This document shows positions 38,173-48,242 of a DNA stretch of 64,000 nt, in pieces. A model generated the notes under the pieces. The model saw only the letters and a program-made list of their open reading frames with translations, was not told where the DNA came from and did not search any database. The stretch lies in the UHGV virus genome UHGV-1493261; one strand, given 5' to 3'. Each line of letters opens with the position of its first letter. Position 1 is the stretch's first letter. This DNA comes from a virus. A program made the translations under genes and the position numbers.

Positions 38173-39288
38173 TTAAAAATTAAACGGATAACGACGACGG
38201 CCACCATTGTACTCCATTCGCTGTAATATGAAAATTGCGGTGAACGGTAGACAGCCCAGCAGAACAACAATCACAACTTCCCAGGTCTTGAGTTCCCGCC
38301 ACTTCAGGTACTCCATTTCCTTCATCTCAACGCGGTTGTAGCCTTTGGTGATGTTAGCGACAACATCAGCCATGACACCGACACCCATGTCGTGGCCTGT
38401 GAGAGCCATACCATTGCGAGAATGGAGTTCACGGTTATGCATACCATCAGCGAACGAAGTGCTCTTACCCCAGTTGATCTTCATGTCTTTGTTGATGTCG
38501 GTCACGACGATAACGTCGTTCTTTTTACCACCATCCCAAGCATAGACCAAGCCCTGGAAGTATTCAACTGGCTGGCCGGAAGTCACAACCCAGACGATGT
38601 TCACCTGCTTGGCTGCGCCCAGCTTCTTCAGGACATCATTCAGATAGTCGTTCCAGTATGTGGTCGGTAACGCCAGACCAGACACATTCAGTACACGAGT
38701 GACGCGATAGTAGTCATAGACTTCGGGATACTTCGGAATCTTGTCTTTGAAGCGCTCAGCAAACTGCTGGTCTGAACGAGAGAACAGAGAGTCTTTGTTG
38801 CCCAGCACATAATTCATATATGAATGTTCACGTGCCGCAGGTTCCCCGATTTTAACTTGTGCCCAGCGCGGCGGTTGACCAAGACCACGACGATCAATAC
38901 GATCAATCGTCAGATTACCAACAGTCGTCAACACATCCCAGTCCACGTCATACGAATGCTCATAGCATGTGCTGCAATGGCGGGTGCGGGTACATGACTT
39001 GCTGCTACCGGAACCGGAACATGATGTGGTGTAGTAGCAGTTGCATTCATATGAATGCTCACAACTCACCTTATTCCGCTCCTTTGCAGTGACGTACCCG
39101 TTCAGGATCTCAACATCCCCAGAACTGCCAAGGGAGAACGCAGCATAAGTCCCCGCCTGAATCAGACAGGATAGCACCACTACAATCGCGGTCGCTATCA
39201 GAGTCTCTTTCGGCTCATGGGTCTTGCGGTGGTAGGTCACAAACAGGATAGCCAGTACCAATGGCACACCAAACAGGAGGTAGATCAT
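38173..39288 (-). CDS. Membrane protein with Cys-rich extracytoplasmic segment (possible LemA partner)
   Basis: 371 aa. N-terminal TM, C-terminal TM pair, Cys cluster CEHSYECNCYYTTSCSGSGSSKSCTRTRHCSTC. Confidence 0.45.
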   Translation of the reverse strand: MIYLLFGVPLVLAILFVTYHRKTHEPKETLIATAIVVVLSCLIQAGTYAAFSLGSSGDVEILNGYVTAKERNKVSCEHSYECNCYYTTSCSGSGSSKSCTRTRHCSTCYEHSYDVDWDVLTTVGNLTIDRIDRRGLGQPPRWAQVKIGEPAAREHSYMNYVLGNKDSLFSRSDQQFAERFKDKIPKYPEVYDYYRVTRVLNVSGLALPTTYWNDYLNDVLKKLGAAKQVNIVWVVTSGQPVEYFQGLVYAWDGGKKNDVIVVTDINKDMKINWGKSTSFADGMHNRELHSRNGMALTGHDMGVGVMADVVANITKGYNRVEMKEMEYLKWRELKTWEVVIVVLLGCLPFTAIFILQRMEYNGGRRRYPFNF

Positions 39289-39839: not shown

Positions 39840-39875
39840 GATAATATCCTCTCTTTATAGGCGAGGATATTTATA

Positions 39876-41111
39876 TCAGCGTTTCAAGAGTGCCATGAGG
39901 TTGACGCTGCTGGACTTCGGCTTGTCCTCAACCTTGCGCACAGGCATCTTCAGGTTCGTACATACCTCGGATGGTTCCCAGCGCGTACCCTTTTGCAGGT
40001 GCCAGATATGCAGAGGAACACCAGTCTCAAAGAACACAGGCATCTTCCACTTCTGGACGCCTGGAACGTGCCCTGCAGGAGCCTTTTCACATAACAGGGT
40101 ATCTGGCAGCCAGAGCGAACGGGCTTCCCAGAGCGCTGCGCAGGAGTATTCAGGCCAGACGCGTTCCATGTAGTCTATCTCATCCCAGGTACGCTCTGCG
40201 TCCCACCCGATGTAACGGGTATTCTTCAGTCGGAAGAATTTCTTCAGCCAACAAGCACCGGAGGTTTCAAAGTTCAGGCGGTTGATGAACGTCAGGTGCC
40301 CGAACTCAGCCACACAATCCTGGAACGCCTGCTCAAGGTCGGCCTCAAGGATGTCACACTCTTCATCCGTGATAGGACAACCGTTGATCTTTTTCTTCCC
40401 GTGCTTGGTCACCCAATCGTCACGGTTGGACAAGAACGCCGCACCGTTGCGGTTGGACTCGCTTCCATCACGATCACGCAGCATGAAGCCAGGGACGTCA
40501 ATGGTGTATTCGTTCCCGAAGACCATGTTCAGGGCTTCCAGGAAGTTCCAGGCGCTCAGGCGACCGAAGTATTTCCAGGACATCGCCGTGTCCCACAGCT
40601 GGGTGAATTGTTCTGTCTTATCGATGCACACCAACATCCCACGGAAAGCGTCATATTGAGTACGACCAGCCAGCCAGTCAATATAGGACTGAACACACGG
40701 AATCATCTTGGACTTGCGGTAGCGACAGTCAGTATCGAATCGCATGCGTTCAAAGTTCAGGTTGTACCAGTCTGAGAAGCGCTGCATCTCTTCCTTAGAC
40801 TGAGGCGGCACAGGGAACTCACTGTAGATAGTCCACGGCCCGACGGCGTTATAGCAACAACCCCACAGGAATGCCATCCAGATCTTGCGCTCGACTTTCT
40901 GTTCGAGGCTGATGCCTTCAGTGACTTCGATCGCATAGTCCATCAGACGCATCTGCTGGTTGTGCTCTTCTGTGTAGGACAGCGCCTCCACCCAAGCCTT
41001 GAGCAGGTACATGCGATTCTCAGGTTTACGGTAGTCAACAGCTAGGTCAATCGGGTACTTCCATTCAGTAGGAGGCGTATAGCCCGTCGGCATTTTAGAT
41101 AGATGCGTCAT
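39876..41111 (-). CDS. Hypothetical protein (candidate DNA-modification enzyme by neighbourhood)
   Basis: 411-aa ORF adjacent to a P-loop kinase; no motif recognised. Confidence 0.5.
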   Translation of the reverse strand: MTHLSKMPTGYTPPTEWKYPIDLAVDYRKPENRMYLLKAWVEALSYTEEHNQQMRLMDYAIEVTEGISLEQKVERKIWMAFLWGCCYNAVGPWTIYSEFPVPPQSKEEMQRFSDWYNLNFERMRFDTDCRYRKSKMIPCVQSYIDWLAGRTQYDAFRGMLVCIDKTEQFTQLWDTAMSWKYFGRLSAWNFLEALNMVFGNEYTIDVPGFMLRDRDGSESNRNGAAFLSNRDDWVTKHGKKKINGCPITDEECDILEADLEQAFQDCVAEFGHLTFINRLNFETSGACWLKKFFRLKNTRYIGWDAERTWDEIDYMERVWPEYSCAALWEARSLWLPDTLLCEKAPAGHVPGVQKWKMPVFFETGVPLHIWHLQKGTRWEPSEVCTNLKMPVRKVEDKPKSSSVNLMALLKR

Positions 41112-41586
41112 CTTTCGCTTCCTCTTCAGGAGCCAGCTGAATGTCTTCTGGTTTCACGAACCCCATCGGACGTTCCCACATATCGATAAAGCGACGGTCA
41201 GCGGTCACGAACCACAGACGGGCTGCAGTGTGGGTCTTACTCGAGATGAACATCTGAGCATTCGTCTGGGTACGGAACGGAGCAGCCTGCAACCACTTGC
41301 CGAAGTCTTTGGACGACGGGTTGGCGTTCAGCTGGAACTGAGGGATGACGCAGTTCTTTTCAGGAATCAGGCGCACGGCAGTAATGTGCTTGGCGTTTCC
41401 GGTGTAGTCAATCGCAACAGCCACAGCATCGCGAGGGATTTGAATTTTCATTTTGGTTCCTTGAATATTTTGTAACCAGCAGCGCCGATAGACATCACCG
41501 CGCCAATACAGTACATCACAGTCACGTTCAACTTCTCTGAGGTTGTTAAGTCCAGAGGGGTGAAATGATAAGCTAGGGCAGTACAC
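41095..41586 (-). CDS. Hypothetical protein
   Basis: 163-aa ORF. Confidence 0.5.
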   Translation of the reverse strand: MYCPSLSFHPSGLNNLREVERDCDVLYWRGDVYRRCWLQNIQGTKMKIQIPRDAVAVAIDYTGNAKHITAVRLIPEKNCVIPQFQLNANPSSKDFGKWLQAAPFRTQTNAQMFISSKTHTAARLWFVTADRRFIDMWERPMGFVKPEDIQLAPEEEAKDDASI

Positions 41587-41647
41587 ATTGAAACGGCTGC
41601 CATAACCAGACCAATGAACAACAGATAATTAGACAACCGTTTCATGA

Positions 41648-42565
41648 TCACCCCTTCTTCATCAGGTCAAGGAGAGAGCGCGACGCTGCCTTCGTTGCTT
41701 CTGGCTGGGCGCTCGCCTTGGTTTTAGTTTTGGATGCCTTCTGTGGCTTCTCAGGCACTCTGTGCGCCAAAGGATCCTGGCCGCCGATTTCACGAGTCAT
41801 CGGATTGGTTTCACAGTAGGCGTAAAAGTCTTTGGTGTCCATGTTAACTTCACGCAGTTCGGACCGTATCTGATGACAAATCGCATTACCCACAACCCAC
41901 AGCGGGGCGTCGTATGGGAGCACCGCCAACTCGGACTGCTGTTTGGTCGTGAACTCCTGGGTGTTGGTCTCTGGCGCTTTATACAGGATATCCTGTCCGC
42001 TGTAATCATCAACAGCCACAGTGAAGCCCAGCGCCAGCATTTCGGCCTTCGACTTCTCAAACTCCTTGGAGTAAGATTCGTTGCGCGACCAGCCGGAGTT
42101 CCCTGCTTCTTTACCAGAGCGACCACGGATACGAGCATCGTACTGATAGCGGTCGGGGTACGCAAAGTACAGCAGCGCCAATGATTCAATCGGATAGTTC
42201 TTGAACATCCATTCAGGACGCCATTTGTCCGATAGCATGAGGGGTTCTCCATCACACACCAGAGTGTAACCCTGAACCAACCAGCACTTGATTAGATCAC
42301 GAGCAATATCGCCTGAGCCTGTAGCAGCATGGATTGCATCCATTGAAGTCCAGGAAGCCAGGCCGGATTTGTTAGACACGGTGTACTGTCCAACGAAGAT
42401 TAACTTCAGCTCTCCGAACTTCAAGCCAAACGGGCGAGTCTTGTCACCAACGGTGTAGGTCAGTTCGGTAGGCTCCAGCTTAGTGCGCAGCCATTCGATG
42501 AACTGGACAACACGGGTGCCCTTACCCGTACCGCTGGTTCCTTTCACTACGATAATTTTTGCCAT
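41648..42565 (-). CDS. P-loop kinase (candidate 5-hydroxymethyl-dU DNA kinase)
   Basis: 305 aa. Walker A GTSGTGKGT at the N-terminus; Lys-rich C-terminal tail. Confidence 0.5.
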   Translation of the reverse strand: MAKIIVVKGTSGTGKGTRVVQFIEWLRTKLEPTELTYTVGDKTRPFGLKFGELKLIFVGQYTVSNKSGLASWTSMDAIHAATGSGDIARDLIKCWLVQGYTLVCDGEPLMLSDKWRPEWMFKNYPIESLALLYFAYPDRYQYDARIRGRSGKEAGNSGWSRNESYSKEFEKSKAEMLALGFTVAVDDYSGQDILYKAPETNTQEFTTKQQSELAVLPYDAPLWVVGNAICHQIRSELREVNMDTKDFYAYCETNPMTREIGGQDPLAHRVPEKPQKASKTKTKASAQPEATKAASRSLLDLMKKG

Positions 42566-42870
42566 TACACAGCATCCTCAATACGCCAGCTCACGCCGCC
42601 CAGCCAAGGTGCCCAGAACACAGCAACCTGTGGGCGGCCATTCTCTTCAAACTTAACTTTATACTGGTCGTCGAAGTTATAGAAGATTTCATCTGCTTCA
42701 GAGCGCTGGCCGATCTTCACCAGTACATCATGAAGAGCCTTGGCTGCACCGATAGGAGTTGGAGTCTCCTGCTGACGAATGAAGTTGTTCACATAGATAA
42801 TCACACCATCCATGTCGCTATCACCGGAATGCTTGTCTGGGGTTTCCCCAAACTTGGATTGTTCTTGCAC
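42565..42870 (-). CDS. Hypothetical protein
   Basis: 101-aa ORF; overlapping stop/start. Confidence 0.5.
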   Translation of the reverse strand: MQEQSKFGETPDKHSGDSDMDGVIIYVNNFIRQQETPTPIGAAKALHDVLVKIGQRSEADEIFYNFDDQYKVKFEENGRPQVAVFWAPWLGGVSWRIEDAV

Positions 42871-42879
42871 GATGTCCTC

Positions 42880-43659
42880 CTATCGGACGTATTGATAATG
42901 ACTAATCAGGCGGTTTACCACTTCGACAATATTGCGGTTCAGGAAGTCGAAGTGGTTCTGGCCTTCTACTGGTTTAATATAAAGCATATCTTCCGAATTC
43001 GAAAGATCCAGTTTTTCATAATTGCCCTGAGGAACAAAGATGACAAAGATGTTGTTCAGGCCACACGGCTCGACATACTTCGGATTGTCATCAATCAGGA
43101 CATCGCCAGCCAGCAGATGCTTTTCGTCGGTGCTGACAAACCCGTTGAAGATACCAGGGAACTTATCATAGACAAACTGACGCTTGCTGCGCTCGTGTTC
43201 CGGCTCGCACTTCGACACCGCGATGAATTCAACATTGTCGAAATCTTCAAGCAAGATCTCCTTCAGATTCACCAGGAACTCGTAAGCGCCGGGGAGCGGG
43301 TTCATCTTGGCGTACAGGTCAGGGCGACGCCACCAATCCATAGGATCGTTACCGCTTGGCACACGTTGTTTGTGCATCCCCAATTGGACTTCATGGTATA
43401 GCCACGCCGGATGCGCACGTTCACGCATCAGAATAGCCAGGTCGCCAGCATGGGACATATAACACTCTTTGGTGATCGGCTGGAACTGGTATGACTTATG
43501 TTCCCCCGTAGCGATAGCAGCGGCGGCGATGTTCTCTTCGTTGAACCACTGCACCCAAGGGGAGAGGCTGTCGACCAACGTCAGGTCAACATCCACGAGG
43601 ACGCGATACAGGCCACCGACCTTTGATTTCATATCATAGATACAAACCAGGTTGTTCAT
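42880..43659 (-). CDS. HAD-superfamily 5'(3')-deoxyribonucleotidase-like protein
   Basis: 259 aa; N-terminal LVDVDLTLVDS resembles HAD motif I (D-x-D-x-T). Confidence 0.45.
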   Translation of the reverse strand: MNNLVCIYDMKSKVGGLYRVLVDVDLTLVDSLSPWVQWFNEENIAAAAIATGEHKSYQFQPITKECYMSHAGDLAILMRERAHPAWLYHEVQLGMHKQRVPSGNDPMDWWRRPDLYAKMNPLPGAYEFLVNLKEILLEDFDNVEFIAVSKCEPEHERSKRQFVYDKFPGIFNGFVSTDEKHLLAGDVLIDDNPKYVEPCGLNNIFVIFVPQGNYEKLDLSNSEDMLYIKPVEGQNHFDFLNRNIVEVVNRLISHYQYVR

Positions 43660-43997
43660 TTGTCTTCCTCAACTTTATCGTAGCCTGTAGCAACACACTG
43701 TTCTTCGGTACAATCTGCATACAGAACGACGGAGGCCTGCTTCACGTAGGTGGTGCAGTGGTAAGTTTCGTCTTCCTGGATGGAATCGTCATAGTTGCAG
43801 ACAGTTTGGAGCGGACCCGGAGTAGTGTTGTCCAGTGCTGCATGCGCCTTGATGGTGTCTTCCATCTTGGACACGGCCTGCTCATTGGTGAACGTCGGCG
43901 CGTCAAGGTCTACAGTAGACGCAACGTCCAGAAGGGTGGAACACGCAGTGGTAGAGAAAGCCAGAGCACACACCAGAAGAATCTTATTGAGTTTCAT
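43656..43997 (-). CDS. Putative lipoprotein
   Basis: Start at MKLNKILL with AGGTGA RBS. Signal peptide ILLVCALAFSTTAC with a lipobox-like Cys, followed by 4 further Cys. Confidence 0.5.
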   Translation of the reverse strand: MKLNKILLVCALAFSTTACSTLLDVASTVDLDAPTFTNEQAVSKMEDTIKAHAALDNTTPGPLQTVCNYDDSIQEDETYHCTTYVKQASVVLYADCTEEQCVATGYDKVEEDK

Positions 43998-44026
43998 TTC
44001 AATCACCTGTTTGTCAAAGGGTTAAC

Positions 44027-44052
44027 AGGGGGAATTATATCCCCCTTTGGTT
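44027..44052 (-). terminator. Hairpin / putative terminator
   Basis: AGGGGGA-ATTATA-TCCCCCT with a T-rich flank; sits between the polymerase stop and the lipoprotein start. Confidence 0.4.
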
Positions 44053-44059
44053 TATTGAA

Positions 44060-45641
44060 TCAACCTTTCTTCTTTTGCATCATGGCAAGAAGGTTCACAC
44101 GGCGCTTGTGTGACCAGCCGACCACGTCGAGGATAGACTGAATCGGATCAATGAAGGACTTCTCAAAGGCCGCCTGATAATCCACCCATTTGCCCAGACC
44201 AAGCTCCTCAGGGAAGAACTCAGGATATGCGAAGTAATTCTGGCCGAATGGGTTGCCCGGCTTCAACAACACCATCTGTACCTTATCACCAGACTCGATC
44301 ATCGGTAGACCCAGATCTTCGTTCTTCTCAACCAGACGGTTGTAACCCACACAAGCCTTGGCAGCAAAATGAGCACCAGAGATGAACGATCCGTCAGCAG
44401 CCACACACTTCTCTATGTCGGACACGCCTGACGCCTTGGCGATATCGTCTACAGAGAGTTTCATGTACTCCTCTTTGTACTGGGAGATGAGCGTCTGCAC
44501 TTCCTCTTCGGTGCCGAGTAGGATCTTCTCATAGCACTTAACAAGACGCTCACGACACCATTCCGGCGTGGTGGACTTGCGGGCTTCCAGACCTTTGAAC
44601 TTGATCTTCGGCTTCTCGTACTTGATACCCTCACTGTCGTACACGGCCATGGCATACATCTTCTTGGCTCGCCAGACAGCGGCTGACGCAATGACCTCAC
44701 GCTCCCATACCATGCGCTGTTCAAATCCGTTCATGGTGTTACACAGAAGCTGTGCCCACTCATTGGTCTTCGGCTGGTAGTTGTCTTTGATCCATTGGTC
44801 GATATTATCAACCATAGCATGATGGTCAGTAACATCAGGCCACAACTGCTTGACAAGACGCTCAATGCAGATGTAGTTGGAGTCGGTATCCCCTGCGATG
44901 ACGAAGTCCTGGCCTGTTGTACCACACAGCTTGTTCAGATAGTCATCAGTGTAACGCTTGTTCCACTTGTTGATCAGCTGACCGGATGTGGTGATGGCTT
45001 CGGCAATGTTGAGGTTGAAGTACTCTTTGAACCAGACGTTCGAGATAGCGCCATAACCTGCGTTCATCAAGATCTTCAGACCTTGCTGTAGGGTGTCTTG
45101 AGCAACACCCAGATCTTCCCACTTCTTCATCACTTCGGTCAGGGCATCAAGATCAATGTTCTTGTGCTCTTCATACCACTCTGGGTCATAGTAGCGAGAC
45201 TTCATGGCAGACTCAAGATGGAAGTCGCCCTTCGACATCTCTTTACACCAGCCAGCCCACTGCTCATACTTCAGACCCTTGGCCTTCTCTACTTTACGGT
45301 CGCTGTAGATACCACGCATGATTTCAGACAGGAACGACATCTTCTCGTTGCTGAAGAATTGAACGTTCGGCGTGAACGACACGTTGTAGCGGCGCAGGGT
45401 TTCAAAGTGGAACTCACCCAGGGCAACCAACTCATCAACAACCTGCAGGCGTTCGTCAACCGCACGCAACAGCTTGTCGTGAAGGGCTTTCATCAACCGA
45501 CGTTTGTGCATCGGCGTTGCCATGTTATTCATCTGAGCAGCCAGCTCTTCACACATAGCCTCAATAATCTCACGGCGCTGGTGTTTGTCGCCAACGATAG
45601 TCTCTGGACCGAGGTTGTACTGCTGAATGATGTGTGGATAT
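44060..45641 (-). CDS. DNA polymerase (family B, T4 gp43-like), exon 2
   Basis: Begins YPHIIQQYNLGPETI (completes motif A; T4 SLYPSIIRQVNISPETI). Motif B KILMNAGYG; motif C VIAGDTDS. The first 16 codons of the ORF-track ORF are assigned to the intron. Confidence 0.8.
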
Positions 45642-46824
45642 CGCTTGTGTTCAGGGATGCTCGCTATTTCATCCCCCGTGTTCGTCATTCAGTTTACCGA
45701 ACACTGCTGTATGTCACCATACAGGCCAGACTATATCACAATCTCCAGAACTGTCTAGAGATTCTCTCCATTTCGAGGCGCTTGCCCCTACTCTACTCGC
45801 TTCAGATCAGACGCTTAGTCGTCGGTCTTGCTTTCGATAGTCGTTGAACCTTGTCACCCACTACTTCAAGGAAATCATCTGGGTTTAACCCAGCGTAACC
45901 AAAGAGTCGTTTGAAGTTTCTTGCCAACTTGCCCCACTCTACAGTCTTCTTACCTAAATCCTGTTGTGTCAAGCAATGAGCGGTTATTTCTTCCCCACTC
46001 ATTCTGGCAAACATTTCCTTCCTTTTCTCTAAAGAATCTTTAAATTTCTTCTTCGCTTTCGGATCGGCGTTTGGTCCCACCTGGCCTTTCTTTGCGCCTA
46101 TTATACATTTCAACTCACCACTCAAATATCTCGGGTCTTGCGTTGAAACTTTGATAACACTACCATCCAGGAGTCTTACGGGGACAGTGCCTTTGTGAAC
46201 AAGACTGGAATTGGCTTTAATTCTTTCAGCTGTTTCTTTATCAGCGCCGAAATAAGCCTTACCCTTCATATCTGCCCTTTTAACACCCTTCTTAGATTTG
46301 GATATCTTTCTTCTGACATCTTCCCTCTTCGAAGGATTCCCTTCTCCCGTCAACATTTCAACATTCTTTCTTCTCAATTCCTCACTTAGTTCCCCGTTAT
46401 GGGATTTCATCATGAAGTAGGCGAAGAACGCTGATTTATCTTCTGGTAATGCTTCATGCAATAGGCGATGAGCCTCCACATGATCTTTGTACAACAGGTT
46501 TACGATATTCCATTCTTCTTTAGAGAACTCAGGATAATGCGCCTGGGGCAGTATATGATGGTGCTCACTGTATTCATCACCATCATAACTGTGTTCCTCA
46601 CAGAACTTCAAATATTCTTCTATCTTAGATTCTTCAATTACCAAATCATTTCGATAGAACAGACTCTTGATTTCCTTCATGACCTTACTCCTTCACCGTG
46701 GTTACAGAGTATTTAGGTCTTCGTGGCCGACCTTGGCTGCTGATTATCTCTAAAGAGACTTCCCAGCAATTAAGAGAGTTATTCGATGGTTGTCGCCAAC
46801 CAAAGCCCCTATGCTGCTAACTTA
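45642..46824 (-). mobile_element. Group I intron (inferred) in the DNA polymerase gene, carrying an HNH homing endonuclease
   Basis: Exon 1 stops 5 codons after DLNSL; exon 2 resumes at YPHII. Boundaries placed so the 5' exon ends in U and the intron ends in G, giving DLNSLYPHII. GATATAGTC (S-element-like) lies near the 3' end. Confidence 0.6.
45802..46680 (-). CDS. HNH homing endonuclease (intron-encoded)
   Basis: 292 aa. HNH motif HHILPQAHYPEF...NIVNLLYKDHVEAH; Lys-rich C-terminal DNA-binding region. Confidence 0.75.
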   Translation of the reverse strand: MKEIKSLFYRNDLVIEESKIEEYLKFCEEHSYDGDEYSEHHHILPQAHYPEFSKEEWNIVNLLYKDHVEAHRLLHEALPEDKSAFFAYFMMKSHNGELSEELRRKNVEMLTGEGNPSKREDVRRKISKSKKGVKRADMKGKAYFGADKETAERIKANSSLVHKGTVPVRLLDGSVIKVSTQDPRYLSGELKCIIGAKKGQVGPNADPKAKKKFKDSLEKRKEMFARMSGEEITAHCLTQQDLGKKTVEWGKLARNFKRLFGYAGLNPDDFLEVVGDKVQRLSKARPTTKRLI

Positions 46825-48242
46825 AGGGAGTTCAAATCTTCCGAGAAGACCCAGAAGTAGATTCCTGGTGTCACATCCATGACGTATGCACCCTCAAAGT
46901 CGGTCGGACCATCGTATACACGCTGGATCTTAGGCACTATCCCCTTCTCATACAGGCGATAGTAGCACATGGCCAGCCACGGAGCCACAGTGCCCAGACC
47001 GTCTTCATAGTTGGACTTGGTGCGGTACGCAAGGACGAACATCAGCTGGAGCAGACGCAGCTTCTGTTCAAGTCGCCATACCAGCTTAACGTCTTTGATA
47101 CCATATCGGGTGTGTTTGCAGTAGTCGTTGAAGTACAGATCAAAGAGCGACTTGCTCTCACTGTAGTCCATCTTCTTCTCACCCAGCTCACAATACGCAA
47201 TCCAGTCAAGAGAGTAGCGTTCACGGGTGGTGTACGTGTGTTTCTTGTAGATCTGCATATAATCGAGCATAGGGCAACCCACGAACTGATACGTCGTGAT
47301 GTCACCCTTCTTATCACGGATGATGCGCTTCTTAATGATGCCCCAAGGACTGAGGCGCGACGTTTCAGCCTCACCCAGAACCTGATTCATGCGCTCAACA
47401 AGATAAGGGCTATCAAACGTCTCAATGTTCCAGCCAGTCCATCCGTCGAACTGACGCTGTGACCAGAAGTCTAGGAACGAGCGCAGCAGATCTTGTTCGG
47501 TGGTGAACTCCTGATAAACAACCTCAAGGCCGCCGATCTCTTTGTCTTCGGTGTCATATGCGAACTTATTGCGGTCTTTGGCACAGGGCATACCCCAGAC
47601 CATGAACTTATTGGTCGCCATATCCTGAAGCTGGATCAGGGTAATGGGGAACGCCGCATTCATGTCTTGGGTGATCTTGCCGTTGCTGTCAATGATAGGG
47701 AACTGATCAGTGACGTTGTTGCTGATGAAAGAACCAGGGAAGTGCTCACGGACAAAATCATGGTTGGCCAGCACTTGTTTATGGAAGCGGCGAATGCGCG
47801 CCTCATTCCCTTTGAACGTCTGCTGCTCAATGGTTGGGTGAGGGAATGGACCTTTGGTCATCTTTCCGTCTTTCCACCCGGCGGAGAACACTTCGATATC
47901 GAGGTTAGCAATATGGATGTTGGTGTAATCCGGCTCAATCTTTCCAGGAAAGCTATGGGCGATGAACTGGTATGCATAATCGGTCTGCCCGTAAATGGCA
48001 GCACCCTGGACTTCCTTGTACTCTTCAAGATAGTTGTCAGCGTCACGCATGGAAGGGAACTGCTTGGCTACCAGGGGTTCATTGAGCAGGCCGACCTTTT
48101 CAACATTTGAATAGTCAGCCGTGGGTAAATAGAGAGTAGGTTCGAATTTCTTTTTCAACAGACGGCGATTACCCATGTCATCTGCAATTCGAATCAACAG
48201 GTCATTGCCCCTGCGGGCAACGTTCGTATAGAAAACGGTCAT
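46825..48242 (-). CDS. DNA polymerase (family B, T4 gp43-like), exon 1
   Basis: N-terminal 3'-5' exonuclease domain (Exo I ANLDIEV); ends in the first half of motif A (DLNSL). Confidence 0.8.

Follow-up and report, generated by a model that had tools for sequence, protein, structure and literature searches.

The window considered here, a stretch of 64,000 nucleotides of the virus genome UHGV-1493261, is by its sequence a segment of an Ackermannviridae (Aglimvirinae) genome. The gene under study encodes a small Cys-rich protein of the family known as DUF7292, which we describe as a predicted lipoprotein precursor. Its complete coding sequence (113 amino acids plus stop), taken from the list of open reading frames (ORFs) and their translations, lies at 43656..43997 on the minus strand. 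The identity of the region to Escherichia phage A221 is 98.5%; it is about 98% to phage RPN242 and about 90% to Dickeya LIMEstone-like phages and Shigella phages of the Agtrevirus group.

The gene runs on the minus strand from an ATG at 43997-43995 to a TGA at 43658-43656, and 62 nt separate its start from the stop of the ORF for the C-terminal part of the DNA polymerase (44060-45688), which bears out the preliminary description of this DNA in placing a small Cys-rich protein next to the polymerase gene. A Shine-Dalgarno sequence, AGGTGA, can be read 5 nt upstream of the ATG (44003..44008, minus strand), and the annotation of phage Maynard has a ribosome-binding site at the equivalent position. 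Some relatives are annotated with a GTG start that would give a protein of 116 amino acids; this start is unlikely because it is located inside the Shine-Dalgarno sequence. At its other end the gene shares an ATGA stop/start overlap, read from the sequence at 43656..43659 on the minus strand, with the downstream NT5C-like gene (42880-43659), and this overlap suggests that the two genes are translationally coupled in one operon.

A conserved phage protein family

The protein matches the Pfam family DUF7292 (PF23964) with an E-value of 2.6e-54 and 182.5 bits against a cut-off of 27, residues 1-112 being aligned with positions 1-110 of the 112-position model, and it also matches phrog_3748 (E=7.7e-63); the family is catalogued in these collections without an assigned function. 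By tblastn the gene is found once per genome in 278 phage records, those listed being phages with genomes of 120-162 kb, a size in keeping with Ackermannviridae, that infect Salmonella, Klebsiella, Escherichia, Dickeya, Serratia, Shigella and Erwinia, and several of the records, such as those of phages Maynard, Gloob and phiD3, already carry the label 'putative lipoprotein' or 'conserved hypothetical lipoprotein'. The proteins of sequenced Aglimvirinae phages are 97-99% identical to the one encoded in the window. Two collections, of 5.8 billion and 1.8 billion proteins, yielded nothing beyond the DUF7292 family when searched; in the second, an exhaustive HMMER search of representatives returned only 6 proteins, all of them members of it.

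The gene is under strong purifying selection. When it is compared with its counterpart in phage Maynard (Kuttervirus) the ratio of nonsynonymous to synonymous change (dN/dS) is 0.06, and amino-acid identity to Maynard stands at 92% for the DUF7292 protein, 84% for the C-terminal part of the polymerase and 76% for the NT5C-like protein. The ORF is a genuine core, single-copy phage gene, and we count it as real because of the conservation of its lipobox Cys, its four later Cys and the residue at position +2, all described below. The protein is non-structural; it is missing from the 39 virion proteins of LIMEstone1 detected by mass spectrometry, a phage whose copy is about 96% identical (PMC3296691).

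Signal peptide, lipobox and predicted fold

The N-terminus of the precursor reads MKLNKILLVCALAFSTTAC, with Ser following Cys19. Residues 1-18 (MKLNKILLVCALAFSTTA; 43944..43997, minus strand) form a predicted signal peptide, with a charged n-region containing Lys2 and Lys5 and a hydrophobic core, ILLVCALAF, that peaks at 3.2 on the Kyte-Doolittle scale; homologues are alike in character, their N-termini varying in length and sequence and yet being always basic and then hydrophobic. The segment VCALAFSTTAC, with its Cys at position 19, fits the PROSITE PS51257-type lipobox pattern, in which the Cys may fall at residues 15-35, and the pattern together with conservation marks the Cys19 codon (43941..43943, minus strand; lipobox TTAC, Ser at +2) as the predicted site of lipidation and of cleavage by signal peptidase II. 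About 20 fragments of ORFs match this pattern within the window, and almost all of them lie in non-coding frames; since the match is not rare, the case for a lipoprotein rests on conservation across the family.

For this purpose 33 sequences were compared, comprising the window protein, 31 cluster representatives and the protein of phiEa2809. A Cys occupies the same aligned lipobox column in 31 of the 33, within boxes that are most often TTAC (11) or LSAC (8), the remainder being LSGC, LTAC, LAGC, VSAC, MSGC, ATAC, TSAC, TTGC and TTSC. At +2, 23 of these lipobox-bearing sequences have Ser and the other 8 have Ala, and none has Asp. The mature part of the window protein has four further Cys, at positions 67, 81, 96 and 101 of the precursor, and exactly four later Cys are present in every one of the 33 sequences; a sixth Cys, Cys10, lies within the signal peptide and is not conserved. 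The two exceptions at the lipobox, P0030 and P0031, are the most distant homologues (32-38% identical), which lack the lipobox Cys, retain the four others and carry ordinary signal peptides of the signal peptidase I type, ending VSA|M and AFA|F. Periplasmic export and two disulfides thus appear from the alignment to be universal in the family, with the lipid anchor as a rule that is not absolute. The preliminary description had proposed a signal peptidase II substrate with four more Cys in its mature part, and both proposals agree with what is seen across the family.

That the DUF7292 protein is secreted into the periplasm is very probable, and that it is lipid-anchored in this phage is likely on the strength of its sequence. 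The competing possibility is that it goes unlipidated here, signal peptidase I cutting after STTA or nearby to release a soluble periplasmic protein in which Cys19 is used in some other way. TTAC indeed fails the strict lipobox [LVI][ASTVI][GAS]C because of its Thr at -3, and it can be read as a signal peptidase I site, T-T-A obeying the small-residue rule of that enzyme; both points count against a lipoprotein, and P0030 and P0031 are themselves of the soluble type. Against a soluble protein, the Cys at the lipobox column is invariant in 31 sequences, of which 13 have boxes of the strict, canonical L/V-[AST]-[AG]-C kind (LSAC, LSGC and LAGC, for example), and TTAC, as the most frequent box in the family (11/31), is evidently tolerated. 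A free Cys19 would moreover leave the mature protein with an odd number of Cys, whereas the homologues without this Cys have exactly four. We consider the soluble form improbable in this phage, and the lipoprotein assignment, drawn from the family-wide lipobox Cys and the two putative disulfide pairs, to be well supported.

An AlphaFold2 model of the mature sequence, built with an alignment of 30 sequences, has a mean pLDDT of 83 and a pTM of 0.70, rising to a pLDDT of about 92 in the folded domain. Mature residues 1-19 are without secondary structure (pLDDT 50-69), and because this stretch is unstructured and is also where homologues differ by insertions and deletions, we read it as a flexible tether (precursor residues 20-37; 43887..43940, minus strand). 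It leads into a globular domain (residues 38-108; 43674..43886, minus strand) made of one helix and a four-stranded antiparallel sheet that holds Cys67, Cys81, Cys96 and Cys101. In the numbering of the mature protein the helix spans 20-37 and the strands 45-52, 60-67, 72-78 and 83-90, and the register of the strands sets Cys49 opposite Cys63 and Cys78 opposite Cys83 across two hairpins. On account of this register the putative disulfides are most likely Cys67-Cys81 and Cys96-Cys101 of the precursor. The mature protein has 95 residues, of which 3 are Pro, and is acidic, with a pI of about 4.05.

The modelled fold appears to be of a generic cystatin/NTF2-like kind, which is common and points to no specific structural relative. 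No meaningful sequence match was found in the PDB with either the single protein or the family profile as query, Foldseek searches of the PDB and BFVD gave no relative outside the DUF7292 family, and there was no match to the protein in NCBIfam or PADLOC. The colicin M immunity protein Cmi (PDB 2xgl) has 7% sequence identity to it, in a match no better than those of many unrelated NTF2/cystatin-like proteins, and what holds Cmi in place is a transmembrane segment in the inner membrane, not a lipid in the outer one.

Spacer, promoter match and gene neighbourhood

The spacer between the polymerase gene and the DUF7292 gene contains a hairpin, GGGGGA-TATAAT-TCCCCC (44028..44045, minus strand), that is unique in the window and is present in the minimum free energy fold of the spacer RNA; the 116-nt stretch around it has a folding z-score of -1.96 against shuffled sequences. 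The hairpin is identical in RPN242, Gloob and Maynard, and inspection by eye shows a different GC-rich hairpin at the corresponding position in relatives from Taipeivirus, Erwinia, Serratia and metagenomes; formal covariation is weak, the alignment of the distant sequences being spoiled by insertions and deletions. A consensus scan also finds here a sigma-70-like promoter match, TTGATT-18 nt-TATAAT (44034..44063, minus strand; 10/12 positions), whose -35 element overlaps the polymerase stop codon and whose -10 element is the hairpin loop, and which is conserved in Kuttervirus and in Klebsiella phage 0507-KN2-1. The element may serve as a promoter or as a leaky terminator, or may combine the two. 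No terminator is annotated between the polymerase and DUF7292 genes in phage Maynard, and judging by sequence the DUF7292 gene probably has its own sigma-70-type promoter in addition to being transcribed with the surrounding block. The window has a single copy of the T4 late-promoter motif TATAAATA; it lies at 39868-39875, away from the DUF7292 gene, and says nothing on timing.

The spacer is nearly identical in Kuttervirus despite the saturation of synonymous sites in the flanking genes. Over 43887-44059, in comparison with Maynard, synonymous divergence (dS) is near zero in the first 37 codons of the gene (0.075 and 0.40), as against 1.9 in the rest of it, and the DNA of the signal peptide is common to Klebsiella phage 0507-KN2-1 and the window, the congener KWBSE43-6 having another signal peptide. 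The low dS at the 5' end, the near-invariant spacer and this difference between 0507-KN2-1 and KWBSE43-6 together suggest either a recombining cassette made of promoter and signal peptide or a constraint acting at the nucleotide level.

The order of genes is DNA polymerase, DUF7292, NT5C-like, DUF7254, 5-hmdU DNA kinase (HMUD2) and an aGPT-type pyrophosphorylase, which places the DUF7292 gene within a leftward block devoted to replication and thymidine hypermodification. The same order is kept on metagenomic contigs whose homologues are only about 35% identical. The hypermodification cluster itself (39876-42870, minus strand) encodes the DUF7254 protein, the HMUD2 kinase and the aGPT-pyrophosphorylase-like protein (phrog_3271), and a SegD-like homing endonuclease that lies between the kinase and DUF7254 genes in RPN242 is absent from the window. 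The polymerase gene is split (44060-48242, minus strand) into an N-terminal part at 46809-48242 and the C-terminal part already mentioned, with an insert that holds an HNH homing endonuclease ORF (45802-46680, phrog_12434) and a sub-threshold match to an Rfam group I intron (45707-45967; 31 bits, E=4.5e-5), an arrangement consistent with the polymerase introns reported for LIMEstone1. Further along, an ORF of 355 amino acids with an N-terminal hydrophobic segment and no Pfam match (38173-39240, minus strand) corresponds to the 'putative membrane protein' that adjoins a LemA-like gene in relatives.

Possible function at the cell envelope

The course that the protein would follow in the infected cell can be set out from its predicted features. 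The precursor would be exported by Sec, Lgt would put diacylglycerol on Cys19, signal peptidase II would cut before that residue and Lnt would N-acylate it. By the +2 rule of E. coli, lipoproteins with a residue other than Asp at this position undergo Lol-dependent sorting to the outer membrane, and such sorting is predicted for the DUF7292 protein because its family has Ser or Ala at +2 and never Asp. With two disulfides formed by DsbA, the product would be an acidic cystatin-like domain of 75 residues that sits between cell wall and outer membrane at the end of a flexible tether of 18 residues, where it may serve as a binding or inhibitor module acting on a periplasmic target conserved across the phage family. 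It would then most likely keep a second phage of the same family from getting through the envelope, as Spackle or Imm of T4 do. A family-wide periplasmic lipoprotein that blocks the entry of a second phage is, in our assessment, the best explanation overall, and one that we put forward tentatively, as somewhat short of an even chance; an exclusion or immunity function is possible at a slightly lower level of confidence.

What such a target might be is constrained by conservation. Tailspike DNA is without a match even in the 98% relative, and phages with non-matching tailspike DNA have DUF7292 proteins that are 92-98% identical, which argues, unlike the situation of Llp, for a target that all these phages, or all of their hosts, have in common. 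If the function is exclusion, this pattern would favour the blocking of entry, as by T4 Sp and Imm, over the masking of a receptor, as by T5 Llp. One candidate lies in the gp5-like tail hub, whose CHAP peptidoglycan-hydrolase domain was read from the hub of the close relative RPN242; the sequence of this domain is 90-95% conserved across Ackermannviridae genera. CHAP domains are papain-like cysteine hydrolases, and a cystatin-like domain on a tether beneath the outer membrane would be in a good position to encounter one, a point of pure inference. As a side observation, the hub gene of RPN242 (gp068; L007 45261-46871, plus strand) is labelled 'baseplate hub subunit and tail lysozyme' and encodes a Gp5 OB domain and a CHAP domain with no lysozyme domain, and Vibrio phage ICP1 and Ralstonia phage RSP15 have related CHAP segments, about 45% identical, in their hubs.

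A functional parallel for such an arrangement is Spackle (gp61.3) of T4, a periplasmic protein made early that inhibits the gp5 tail lysozyme, with which the tail tip of an incoming phage hydrolyses the cell wall (PMC7677548). Like the DUF7292 protein it is a small exported periplasmic protein encoded among replication genes; it differs in being soluble, where the DUF7292 protein is predicted to be lipidated, and its target is a lysozyme domain, where the hub in the DUF7292 phages has a CHAP domain. Spackle is also all-helical. That the DUF7292 protein might be a non-homologous counterpart of Spackle, a cystatin-fold inhibitor that captures the CHAP hydrolase of the incoming Ackermannviridae tail tip and so brings about family-wide exclusion, is a specific proposal that we regard as a long shot.

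A second parallel from T4 concerns genome position. The gene imm.1 encodes a lipoprotein (MKIAILVIALGLAGC...) and is followed by the superinfection-immunity gene imm, and it resembles the DUF7292 gene in being the first gene after the polymerase, in preceding base-modification genes and in encoding a small lipoprotein with four further Cys. In the T4 record (L010 4637-5014, minus strand) imm.1 lies between gene 43 and imm and has a canonical lipobox, LAGC, with four Cys; its RefSeq name, 'iduronate sulfatase', looks to be a mis-annotation. Homology between the DUF7292 protein and imm.1 was considered and rejected, since hhalign aligns the signal peptides only and the Pfam families differ (imm.1 belongs to DUF5481). 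By analogy imm.1, in the same genomic slot, might do a job like the one proposed here. In the window a protein of 67 amino acids with two predicted membrane helices (phrog_4514; 41448-41651, minus strand), encoded just downstream of the 5-hmdU kinase gene, is like T4 Imm in size and topology only, and has no Pfam match and weak, sub-threshold NCBIfam matches.

Other roles have to be set beside the blocking of entry. The preliminary description had also offered an outer-membrane spanin, and an Rz1-like o-spanin joining inner and outer membranes at lysis would likewise be a small phage outer-membrane lipoprotein, with Ser at +2 and Cys able in principle to form intermolecular disulfides. The likeness ends there, as the flanking genes encode cytoplasmic enzymes (the polymerase C-terminal part and the NT5C-like protein) with no i-spanin gene embedded, overlapping or adjacent, the mature part is confidently folded and with its few Pro is neither Pro-rich nor unstructured, and P0030 and P0031 have lost the anchor altogether. 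The role is apparently filled elsewhere, on the evidence of a relative's genome and a database label: in a genome-wide lipobox scan of RPN242 just two of the ORFs with a lipobox corresponded to annotated genes, the DUF7292 gene and gp104 (MKCKILLLMVLIAGC...), and gp104, about 70 kb away, belongs to phrog_3843, 'Rz-like spanin'. A predicted Rz spanin is likewise reported for Kuttervirus at another position in the gene list (PMC10892097) and as a separate hallmark gene (PMC9409062). We therefore reject the o-spanin identity on the grounds of gene context, composition, foldedness and loss of the anchor, and leave it only the slimmest likelihood. In RPN242 gp104 and gp105 form a candidate spanin pair (L008 23415-24427, minus strand), in which gp104 is a lipoprotein of 108 amino acids (LIAGC) that is bigger and less Pro-rich than classical Rz1, and its start overlaps the end of gp105, a protein of 228 amino acids with an N-terminal hydrophobic membrane or signal segment and many Cys.

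Masking of a receptor would be exclusion of another type, that of T5 Llp and phi80/N15 Cor, which are small, disulfide-bonded lipoproteins of the inner leaflet of the outer membrane made early in infection (PMC9586334; bioRxiv 10.64898/2026.03.26.714494); here the DUF7292 protein would bind the periplasmic face of a secondary receptor in the outer membrane and inactivate it. It is predicted to be an inner-leaflet lipoprotein of the outer membrane made during infection, it resembles Llp in its small size and disulfide bonds (PMC9586334), and an outer-membrane protein common to Enterobacterales could explain its strong conservation. Yet T5-type Llp proteins cluster with the receptor-binding protein, whose gene the llp gene adjoins (PMC12980165; PMC9586334), whereas the DUF7292 gene follows DNA polymerase, has no receptor-binding gene beside it and encodes a protein that is near-identical across phages with unrelated tailspikes, hosts and receptors. 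Two homologues are soluble and not lipid-anchored, there is no similarity to Llp or Cor in sequence or fold, and no report was found of a protein secondary receptor for Ackermannviridae phages. We judge receptor masking to be unlikely. Somewhat less so, and still clearly on the unlikely side, is a modulator that acts in the periplasm on the physiology of the host envelope or on the timing of lysis and is not an exclusion factor at all. It could, for example, inhibit a host cell-wall enzyme such as a cysteine enzyme of the NlpC/P60 or L,D-transpeptidase kind, or work together with the holin/endolysin pathway. A core single-copy gene under strong purifying selection suggests a step in the infection cycle more readily than an accessory function, the cystatin-like fold serves in inhibitors of cysteine peptidases, and the location is periplasmic; on the other side, the gene is unlinked to the endolysin gene (gp077 in RPN242) or to spanin-like genes, and neither a motif nor homology singles out any one host enzyme. 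The positional analogy with T4 is the sole thing that separates exclusion from such a modulator.

Several points weigh against the entry-blocking interpretation that we prefer. The DUF7292 protein has neither sequence similarity to Spackle nor a match to its fold in the PDB searches, no homology or fold match to Llp or Cor, and no homology to T4 Imm, and judging by sequence it stands outside the Llp, Cor, Spackle, Imm, imm.1, spanin and cystatin families alike. The inhibitory motifs of cystatins (QxVxG in the first hairpin and PW in the second) are absent from both the protein and the family consensus. The parallel with imm.1 and imm is one of position only, and no reported function was found in the literature for imm.1 (Pfam DUF5481). 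Expression of the DUF7292 gene would be early or middle because of its position in the replication block and its sigma-70-like match, so the timing is read from gene position and a consensus match, and the literature searched yielded neither a Kuttervirus transcriptome nor other expression data. The hub and spanin genes lie outside the window and were read from the 98% relative. Finally, a literature search on DUF7292 found no paper that mentions the family and no functional study of it.

The family is already catalogued as a hypothetical lipoprotein, and to a specialist a conserved hypothetical lipoprotein is unsurprising; what is added here is mainly a cleaner description and a testable hypothesis, to which the idea of a Spackle analogue adds some value. 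No envelope-level exclusion factor for Ackermannviridae was found in the literature searched. Should the DUF7292 protein prove to block re-infection, the few phage exclusion proteins on record would gain one with a new fold, from a new family with a known kind of job. Ackermannviridae such as the ViI, CBA120 and LIMEstone-like phages are widely used in biocontrol and in phage cocktails, and an exclusion protein of this kind would affect how these phages behave in cocktails and during co-infection.

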